A stretch of DNA of 62,703 bases, counting the filler, from Basidioascus undulatus (Eukaryota): assembly GCA_000826855.1 (NCBI GenBank). It is 7 parts of 7 records of this genome, joined end to end, with 100 filler letters (N's around TTAATTAATTAA, not from the genome) between each part and the next. Parts side by side here need not be neighbours in the genome. Positions count along the whole stretch, not along the records: positions 50,763 to 56,683 come from JTLS01001844.1; 6 more parts are not named here. One strand, 5' to 3'. Position 1 is the first letter of the stretch; each line of letters starts with the position of its first letter. Both the position numbers and the translations under genes were made by a program. This document shows positions 52,700 to 53,600 of this stretch, piece after piece. The notes under the pieces were generated by a model, which saw only the letters and a list, made by a program, of their open reading frames with translations, was not told the origin of the DNA and did not search any database.

Positions 52700-53600
52700 A
52701 GGGAAGTGGGCTATAGAGAGACGTGCAGGGATTCGCCCGGTAGGTTCTATCCGCTCCATAGAGCAAGGCAACCCTGAGGAAACGCGAGAGAAGAGAAAGC
52801 TGTTTCTTGACTTTTAATTGGGAGGGAGATTGAATAGGGCTGCTTAGGAACCTACCGACAGTGGGCAAGTACTGTGAGTGAGATAAACGCGCTGTTCCAC
52901 AGCTCTGTAGAGCGGCGAAACGGTGAGGAGGAGCGAGGTGAGAGCAAGTAGTGGGATCTTGCTCTTGATTTTTGAGTCTTGAGAGGCGGTATCTGGAAGT
53001 GAGTGGGGAGGGCTCTGCAAGCACGCTAAGTAAGTTGATGGCTGCGTTGGCCAACGGCTTCGCGGAGCGGCGCGACACCCGGAGGAAGATCGAGAGGGAA
53101 AGGCAAGCATCGCCAACTGAGTATCCAGTCTTTAATCCTAGTCTCTAGACTGAGGGGATACCGAGGTGAGATAACGGGAAATTTGCAGGGCGGGTACGTC
53201 GGGTAAGTGGGACGGCGATGCAGCTTGTCCAACGACCGTTCTGTAGAGCCGCCCAACCCTGAGGAAGAGTCAGACTGAGGTGTTTAATCCTGATGTTGAG
53301 ACTTTCTGTCTGCACTTTTGTGTGTGTGTGGGGGGATAACGAAACGGGACGTTGAGGGTACGATCTGCGGAGGGTAGGTACGTTTATGTGAGTTGGGCAG
53401 ACATGCTGCCCAAGGACAGCTCAGTGGAGCAGTGCAACCCTGAGGAGACGCCATGAGAGCAAAGTGCTTGCGATTGATCTTGCGGTGGAAGTCGGAGAGT
53501 CGAAGATCTGCAAGAACGGTGAGTTGGACAGGCGTGCCTGTCCGACTTAAGTTCGACAGCTCCGTAGAGCAGCGGCCACCCGGATGAAGCGCGAGGGGGA
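52700..53600. repeat. Six-unit degenerate structured repeat array, candidate ncRNA
   Basis: GYTY-N4-GAGC hairpins start at 52753, 52902, 53057, 53238, 53419 and 53559; each is preceded by GTRRGT and followed by an AACCCTGAGGA-like motif. Confidence 0.8.

Follow-up and report, generated by a model that had tools for sequence, protein, structure and literature searches.

Fungal non-coding host genes have an established architecture, in the passages of the study cited here, in which each intron carries a conserved element and the exons are junk (PMC2780460). We describe an array of six diverged tandem modules in Basidioascus undulatus (assembly GCA_000826855.1, record JTLS01001844.1) that lies upstream of the gene for the ribosomal protein RPS14 (uS11). 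It was analysed within a window of 62,703 nucleotides (nt), filler included, which is the whole stretch of DNA considered (62.7 kb) and along which all positions are counted. The closest architecture to that of the array is found in the fungal UHG/GAS5-like small nucleolar RNA (snoRNA) hosts, as represented in the same passages by the Neurospora crassa box C/D clusters, with a donor, a conserved intronic element and short, poorly conserved exons (PMC2780460). The array and these hosts both have little coding potential and a thematic link to ribosome production. The array differs from them in lacking box C/D features, H/ACA features and any Rfam match, and its cores are paralogues of one another rather than distinct guides. 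Its branch and acceptor signals are also non-consensus, and its splicing is only predicted.

A further parallel comes from the pre-mRNAs of yeast RPS14B, RPS9A and other ribosomal proteins, where the cited passages describe binding of the encoded protein to a donor-proximal structure of its own intron (PMC12350175). As in the RPS14B system, a hairpin of the array abuts or includes the 5' splice site, and the neighbouring gene is RPS14. However, the yeast element described there (PMC12350175) is a single copy in the first intron of its own gene, whereas the array has six copies 0.9-1.7 kb upstream that are unlike RPS14 intron 1 or the RPS14 leader. Binding of uS11 to the array is pure conjecture. 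In human cells, intact 5' splice-site motifs have been described as nuclear-retention and decay signals acting via U1-70K and ZFC3H1 (PMC4380460, PMC9074902). The array is similar in having 11-14 donor motifs and few good acceptors, but the human cases in the cited passages are single motifs, and a conserved array of six modules to which a structured core is linked is not known from them. The UHG hosts, RPS14B and the human retention signals are analogies, not families to which the array belongs. The mammalian Xist A-repeat consists of about 6-8 short GC-rich cores that carry small tetraloop hairpins and alternate with variable, U-rich spacers, and it binds protein multivalently. It has a similar modular-core plan, but it is unrelated in sequence and lacks a splice-donor motif; the likeness is one of working only. 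A literature search found no description of such an array; the motif itself could not be queried there. Our favoured reading, to which we assign a probability of roughly 0.38, is that the array may be a + strand non-coding transcript of RNA polymerase II with six intron-like, U1-binding modules.

Six cores of ~54 nt each are found on the + strand between 52745 and 53605 (Table 1), and the array that they form is real, strand-asymmetric, non-coding and of no catalogued family. Each unit contains a 12-nt palindromic element, G[CT]T[CT]-N4-GAGC, which corresponds to a tetraloop hairpin (hairpin 2) and is followed, 5-7 nt further 3', by a purine tract with the pattern ACCC-K-GA-K-GA, matched in 5 of the 6 units. 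A hexamer resembling a 5' splice site, GTRRGT, sits 13-40 nt 5' of the palindrome. Hairpin 2 starts at 52753, 52902, 53057, 53238, 53419 and 53559, which reproduces the spacings of 149, 155, 181, 181 and 140 nt given in a preliminary description of this DNA; the six hairpin sequences and the six GTRRGT positions reported there were also recovered. The last block of that description, (A/C)ACCC(T/G)GA(G/T)GA..CGAG, holds in five of the six units and fails in unit 2 (ACGGT), and its CGAG is present in only four of six.

A loose regular expression for the palindrome plus the tract gave six matches on the + strand, none on the - strand and none elsewhere in the 62.7-kb window. We also built a covariance model of the 54-nt core from the six copies and ran it on the window, where the six cores scored 49.7-61.3 bits and the next-best matches 15.9 and 15.2 bits. 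The weak model matches at 43475 and 46830 are purine-rich sequence, unrelated by eye. Tandem Repeats Finder (TRF), run on the window, missed the array owing to the strong divergence of its units. The mean column identity of the whole unit is 51%, and this value, together with the silence of TRF, rules out a minisatellite or simple tandem repeat, whose copies are at least ~70% alike. A pattern scan of metagenomes for hairpin 2 plus the last block returned at least 120 loci (mean GC content 0.63), and every listed locus had a single match, none an array. Six of the listed matches share one near-identical sequence that reads as an open frame (coding) and is unrelated to the array. The listed matches are taken as chance, and the scan as uninformative.

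The donor-like hexamers are the clearest strand signal of the array. A consensus donor, GTRNGT, is present in all six units, and five extra sites lie outside a (GT)n run. Between 52690 and 53760, GTRNGT occurs 14 times on the + strand against 3.0 expected (~4.6-fold; a count of 14 is reached in 0 of 1000 dinucleotide-preserving shuffles), with 3 of the 14 falling in a (GT)n run, and once on the - strand against 0.6 expected. For GTRAGT, six copies lie within 651 nt on the + strand, compared with ~0.2 predicted from the window-wide density. The flank at 52150-52690 is as purine-rich as the array and has no donor-like hexamers. Two simple repeats, a (GTGA)n microsatellite at 50763-50782, directly behind a masked run of N, and a short (GT)n run at 53318-53330 in the spacer between units 4 and 5, raise simple counts of donor hexamers. 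Such N runs, 44 nt long and in pairs, return roughly every 6 kb between 26545 and 56783 (six pairs) and resemble deliberate masking rather than gaps of the assembly.

Conservation was measured as pairwise alignment scores of unit blocks against shuffled sequence. It is uneven and block-wise, as had been claimed: the core (z = 27) and the donor region (z = 5.1) are kept far above the spacers (z = 2.8-4.6), the donor-to-core stretch has z = 1.6, and the 20 nt 5' of the donor show no conservation (z = 1.5). Within the core alignment, columns 7-38 have 74% pairwise identity, and 14 columns are identical across all six cores. Pairwise core identities of 0.48-0.69 are star-like and not nested, a pattern that would fit selection to one consensus better than serial recent copying. 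The spacers are still weakly homologous, and therefore the entire unit was once duplicated; apparently ~32-54 nt and the hexamer alone have been retained since. On this comparison of the copies, the array of six modules looks to be under selection, and it probably acts as RNA.

Both the non-coding status of the array and the gene-free character of its surroundings, as first described, are confirmed. The unit spacings are not multiples of three, and stops are present in all three + frames in two of the five inter-core segments. Among 63 open reading frames (ORFs) of at least 110 amino acids (aa; set taken from 44 kb onward), none within 49.4-54.4 kb (~5 kb) matched Pfam. GC content at third codon positions (GC3) is flat in the ORFs of 51.6-54.4 kb (0.53-0.57), versus 0.81-0.90 in the RPS14, cytochrome-b5 and Coa1 genes of the same window. 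Spacing, stops, GC3 and Pfam together rule out a protein-coding repeat or a micro-exon gene. The stretch at 49400-54470 without a recognisable gene (GC 0.43-0.61) is unusually long beside coding regions of GC 0.63-0.74.

The unit had not been recognised as a known RNA family, and this agrees with Rfam, which gave no match at gathering score in the whole window and none at E<=10 in 52200-54000. ARAGORN detected no tRNA genes in the window, and a suspected resemblance of certain blocks to segments of 5S rRNA and to tRNA D-arms was borne out by neither program. Box C/D snoRNAs are rejected, as a usable C/D pair is found in none of the six units. The box C sequence TGATGA is absent from both strands at 52600-53800, and when a C box with at most two mismatches was sought together with CTGA and a terminal stem, a single candidate emerged, in unit 3, its box having two mismatches and its stem 3 base pairs (bp). 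H/ACA snoRNAs are likewise rejected on the basis of stems that are perfect over 8-10 bp or only 4 bp long, without pockets, and the lack of an Rfam match, no dedicated H/ACA finder having been run. The ribozyme, riboswitch and Rnt1p ideas of the preliminary description found no support, with stems of 4 bp and no match in Rfam. For the hammerhead, CTGANGA is present in three of six units only, is not followed by stem II/GAAA by eye, and leaves the Rfam hammerhead models silent. A spliced-leader RNA array is excluded by the unconserved 20 nt before the donor, a Sm-site consensus in one of six units and the strong divergence of the units.

Among the proposed structures, only the predicted hairpin abutting the donor in units 4-6 (hairpin 1) is supported. 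This is the variable hairpin of the preliminary description, which stands in units 5 and 6, is marginal in unit 4 (z values in Table 1), is not significant in units 2 and 3, and is absent from unit 1, as had been stated. In a four-row alignment of hairpin 1, 26 of 29 cells pair, against 18-46% with the partners slid, and it is more stable on the + than on the - strand in all four units. Hairpin 2 has no compensatory pairs across the six units and two one-sided changes, and both stem substitutions give G-U pairs on the + strand, as noted earlier. The same pattern would be expected of a palindromic site in DNA whose spacer is free to vary. The proposal that selection acts on RNA structure is therefore unsupported as it was stated, given no compensatory pairs in hairpin 2, no significant covariation in hairpin 1 and ordinary folding of all units but unit 6. 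The + strand, to which the wobble pairs had pointed, is nonetheless favoured: four G-U-type changes are tolerated only there, hairpin 1 folds better there in four of four units, and the donor enrichment is confined to it. Support for an RNA reading on the + strand comes from the enriched donors and the G-U pattern rather than from proven covariation. Pairing of the donor GAGU with the GCUC arm, another earlier suggestion, can be drawn by eye in four of six units and appears in two minimum free energy (MFE) folds. A perfect 10-nt inverted repeat joins 52738-52747 at the unit-1 donor (CGGTAGGTTC) with 52848-52857, 100 nt downstream. In a transcript, this pairing would close a loop around the whole unit-1 core and mask the unit-1 donor; no equivalent was found in the other units.

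The U-rich parts of all spacers but the last contain branch-like YTRAY elements (UUGAU, UUGAC, UUAAU or CUGAU) with a RAG 6-14 nt on, which is GAG in four cases, TAG in one and AAG in one; no YTRAY-RAG follows unit 6. The donor-to-RAG spans are 85-112 nt, and the core tract itself terminates by eye in GAG, 39-71 nt from the donor. Four of the five RPS14 introns have lengths (65-84 nt) within the limits set by these two sets of spans. The tract is laid out like the CTRAC-GCT-CAG that closes RPS14 intron 4 and also precedes the ATG, but has neither the branch-site U nor the C before AG. Because neither CTRAY nor YAG is enriched (see below) while the donors are strong, the modules have weak or crippled 3' signals, and strong acceptors are found only near RPS14, at 54273, 54395 and 54478. 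A de novo intron finder, run on the window for splice-site matrices, gave 1287 candidates and was too unspecific in GC-rich DNA. The pentamer TCTTG is over-represented in the U-rich spacer parts (52650-53500; 5 vs 1.0 expected, and 5 of 1000 shuffles reach 5).

RPS14 is on the same strand as the array, with its ATG (54480-54482) 875 nt past the last core. Its six coding exons encode a 150-aa protein, and exon 3 matches Ribosomal_S11 with E=3.1e-22. The introns are 218, 84, 65, 67 and 74 nt long, with four GTGCGT donors and one GTAACT, and four CAG acceptors and one AAG. The AAG terminates intron 3 (55169-55233) after a branch-like ATAAC; ATAAC motifs are also found 15-45 nt 5' of the donors of units 4 and 5. 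The RPS14 ATG directly abuts a donor GTGCGT (54483) and is preceded by TACTAAC (54465-54471, the sole copy in the window) and CAG (54475-54477). No GTNNGT is present on the + strand between 53745 and the RPS14 donor at 54483, and therefore the donor for TACTAAC-CAG, if this site is used, must be the one at 53745 or lie in the array. From these motifs, TACTAAC-CAG is a possible landing site for the array donors. Its use would place the start codon in a 5-nt internal exon (AAATG), with the upstream donor at least 733 nt off. We considered whether the units are copies of RPS14 intron 1 and rejected this (local alignments, p=0.06-0.85; the one shared 11-mer is chance). Copies of the RPS14 leader or promoter in the spacers were also rejected (summed p=0.56), though four of the six best alignments hit the same CTTGA(TCT). 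The sequence CTTGATCT is common to the stretch that precedes unit 1 (52670) and the leader of RPS14 (54429).

Table 1. Features of the array and of the adjacent RPS14 gene, in window coordinates.
Feature	Position	Strand	Support
Whole array, six diverged tandem modules with U-rich/G-rich lead-in before unit 1	52650..53620	+	GC skew, core model
Core 1: 4-bp tetraloop hairpin and ACCC-K-GA-K-GA purine tract	52745..52798	+	56.7 bits
Core 2	52894..52947	+	59 bits
Core 3	53049..53104	+	49.7 bits
Core 4	53230..53283	+	55.6 bits
Core 5	53411..53464	+	55.2 bits
Core 6	53551..53605	+	61.3 bits
Donor-like hexamer, unit 1, GTAGGT	52740..52745	+	sequence
Donor-like hexamer, unit 2, GTGAGT	52874..52879	+	sequence
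Donor-like hexamer, unit 3, GTAAGT; second at 52999	53030..53035	+	sequence
Donor-like hexamer, unit 4, GTAAGT; second at 53194	53203..53208	+	sequence
Donor-like hexamer, unit 5, GTGAGT; others at 53374, 53378	53388..53393	+	sequence
Donor-like hexamer, unit 6, GTGAGT	53519..53524	+	sequence
Hairpin 1, unit 4, begins at donor +5	53207..53233	+	z -1.48
Hairpin 1, unit 5, 8 bp, begins at donor +6	53393..53413	+	z -2.97
Hairpin 1, unit 6, 10 bp, begins at donor +5	53523..53546	+	z -4.26
U-rich YTRAY branch-like elements followed by RAG, in spacers	52672, 52807/52814, 52965, 53132, 53284/53290, 53474 (range 52672..53491)	+	sequence
TACTAAC and CAG, branch site and acceptor of consensus type, with 2 nt between CAG and the RPS14 ATG	54465..54477	+	sequence
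RPS14 (uS11) gene, six coding exons, first coding exon ATG only	54480..55440	+	exon 3 Ribosomal_S11 match

If the array is such a + strand transcript with U1-binding modules, the six units would be old tandem duplicates of one ~150-nt non-coding module, kept by selection and read as RNA in the direction of RPS14. The module would be laid out as a short intron of fungal type next to a small exon, the U1-type donor GTRRGT coming first. In units 4-6, which look younger, the hairpin takes in donor position +5 or +6, so that local structure may gate the donor. Next would come the ~32-nt conserved core, made of the 4-bp tetraloop mini-hairpin and a putatively single-stranded ACCC-K-GA-K-GA purine tract, and last the U-rich UUGAY branch-like element with its non-consensus RAG. 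RNA polymerase II would produce a multi-donor non-coding transcript, either a long non-coding RNA of its own or a long upstream leader. The donors of this transcript may use the weak local branch and RAG sites, giving a chain of inefficient short introns, may splice to TACTAAC-CAG before the RPS14 ATG, or may remain in unspliced modules that hold U1. The conserved core would act as an intronic protein-binding element that sets the use of the adjacent donor. The sequence itself shows the anatomy, the uneven conservation, the bias to the + strand, the donor enrichment and the lack of coding; transcription, U1 binding, splicing, a protein partner and a link to RPS14 expression are what we infer for the array. 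Intron-like parts of a spliced non-coding transcript, an alternative that the preliminary description had itself raised, would be the best fit to the anatomy.

Several results weigh against such a transcript. Strict CTRAY is not enriched on the + strand (1 vs 2.8 expected), nor is YAG (33 vs 38.7 expected), and the local RAG is GAG, a very poor splice acceptor, at four of six sites. Splicing of an array donor to the acceptor at RPS14 would remove an intron of 733-1738 nt, far above the 65-218 nt within RPS14, and would leave a 5-nt exon; the units also have no similarity to RPS14 intron 1 or the leader. Splicing signals alone do not explain strong conservation over ~32 nt within a short intron. 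The folding results point the same way. Whole-unit folding energy is ordinary against shuffles except in unit 6 (z for units 1-6: 0.11, 0.24, -0.36, -1.21, -1.16 and -2.79 on the + strand; 0.23, -1.49, 1.68, 0.20, -0.50 and -0.90 on the - strand), and the tetraloop hairpin is formed in only one of the six unit MFE folds. The single compensatory pair of hairpin 1 is equalled in 125 of 500 shuffles, and covariation in this hairpin is not significant. Long-range pairing of the pre-donor segment with the last block showed no preference for cognate over non-cognate partners (p=0.12).

The lack of compensatory change in hairpin 2 can also be read at the level of DNA. The palindrome GCTC-N4-GAGC would then bind a dimeric factor beside an ACCC-K-GA-K-GA site, and the array would activate or insulate RPS14 or another gene. 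Invariant arms, a free 4-nt spacer and no compensatory pairs are the pattern of a palindromic DNA site, and the rarity of the 4-bp stem among the unit MFE folds (one of six), the fixed 5-7 nt between the sub-sites, a unit spacing (140-181 nt) close to one nucleosome repeat and a position 5' of a highly regulated gene class all agree with it. We nevertheless consider regulatory DNA unlikely, as it leaves unexplained the enrichment of donor hexamers on the + strand only, the pairing of the donor-abutting hairpin despite sequence change and its better folding on the + strand. The two substitutions in the palindrome share an arm and both allow G-U pairing, the distance of 875 nt from the end of the array to the ATG is judged large for a compact fungal promoter, and no extra copy lies near other genes of the window. 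Functionless decay of a tandem duplication, with the blocks arising from uneven mutation, local gene conversion or anchoring by the aligner, would account for the weak homology of the spacers, which indicates that the entire unit was once duplicated, and for the absence of any significant covariation test. It is quite improbable in view of the large contrast between core and spacers, the same 14 columns being invariant in six of six copies, and the star-like rather than nested core identities. That gene conversion should have been limited to one and the same 32-54 nt in each of the six copies is judged unlikely, and the donor hexamer shows the R/R variation typical of working donors.

We give similarly little weight to a precursor of small RNAs of a new family, polycistronic or intron-hosted, in which each module would yield a stable RNA of ~50-90 nt (hairpin 1, hairpin 2 and purine tract) like the intronic snoRNAs of UHG-like hosts. 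A conserved intronic core with a donor and poor exons is the pattern of fungal snoRNA host genes in the cited passages (PMC2780460), and six paralogous cores do lie in a row beside a ribosomal-protein gene. However, there is no box C on either strand at 52600-53800, no usable C/D pair in any unit and no Rfam match at E<=10, the units fold no better than shuffles, and the hairpins are judged too short for an H/ACA pocket, Dicer or Rnt1p. The Sm consensus is limited to one of six units, and the ends carry no known protective protein-binding motif. The least probable of the readings considered is a minus-strand element, either a pyrimidine-rich transcript running divergently to RPS14 or a long tail belonging to a leftward transcript, with ACYYAC, the reverse complement of the donor, serving as a branch-like site before a YGCAG 4-25 nt away. 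The - strand is pyrimidine-rich over 52150-53950, as sense strands near fungal promoters typically are, and acceptor-like CGCAG/TGCAG can be seen by eye on it in units 3, 5 and 6. But donors are lacking there (GTRNGT, 1 vs 0.6 expected) and branch sites are few (CTRAY, 1 vs 4.3 expected; YTRAY, 1 vs 6.2 expected), ACYYAC does not match CTRAY, all four G-U pairs become C-A mismatches, hairpin 1 is worse in four of four units, and the - strand ORFs have flat GC3 and no Pfam match.

A bolder version of the favoured + strand transcript is also very improbable. Here, the array would be a multivalent platform and an undescribed fungal regulatory RNA, whose six hairpin-gated 5' splice-site modules and protein-binding cores would bind U1 small nuclear ribonucleoprotein, perhaps also stalled early spliceosomes or free uS11, while remaining unspliced. 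Such a platform would sense or buffer the supply of spliceosomes or ribosomal proteins without productive splicing, and would be coupled to RPS14 output through the TACTAAC-CAG acceptor or through transcriptional interference.

Were the array to prove transcribed and retained in relatives, a conserved non-coding RNA element of modular build would be added to a fungal group outside the reach of a large structural-RNA screen of fungi, which in the passages cited here queried Ascomycota only (PMC8216456). The array could then also be a genetically tractable case of donors gated by local structure together with a dedicated binding core, next to a gene whose yeast counterpart is known, from the cited passages (PMC12350175), to autoregulate via an intronic structure of its own. 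As regulatory DNA or as a duplication in decay, the array would be of local interest only.

The array lies within a G-rich stretch of the + strand (GC skew of +0.22 to +0.46 over 52150-53950). Strand composition flips near 51700, with the + strand being C-rich at 51250-51700 (GC skew to -0.47) and then G-rich to 53950 (to +0.46). The C-rich part contains acceptor-like motifs on the + strand, CTAAC...CAG and polypyrimidine-CAG, at 51467-51600. A TATA-like AATATAG is located at 52619-52627, ~65 nt 5' of the G-rich start of unit 1 and ~115 nt 5' of the first donor, and is a candidate promoter for a + strand transcript of the array.

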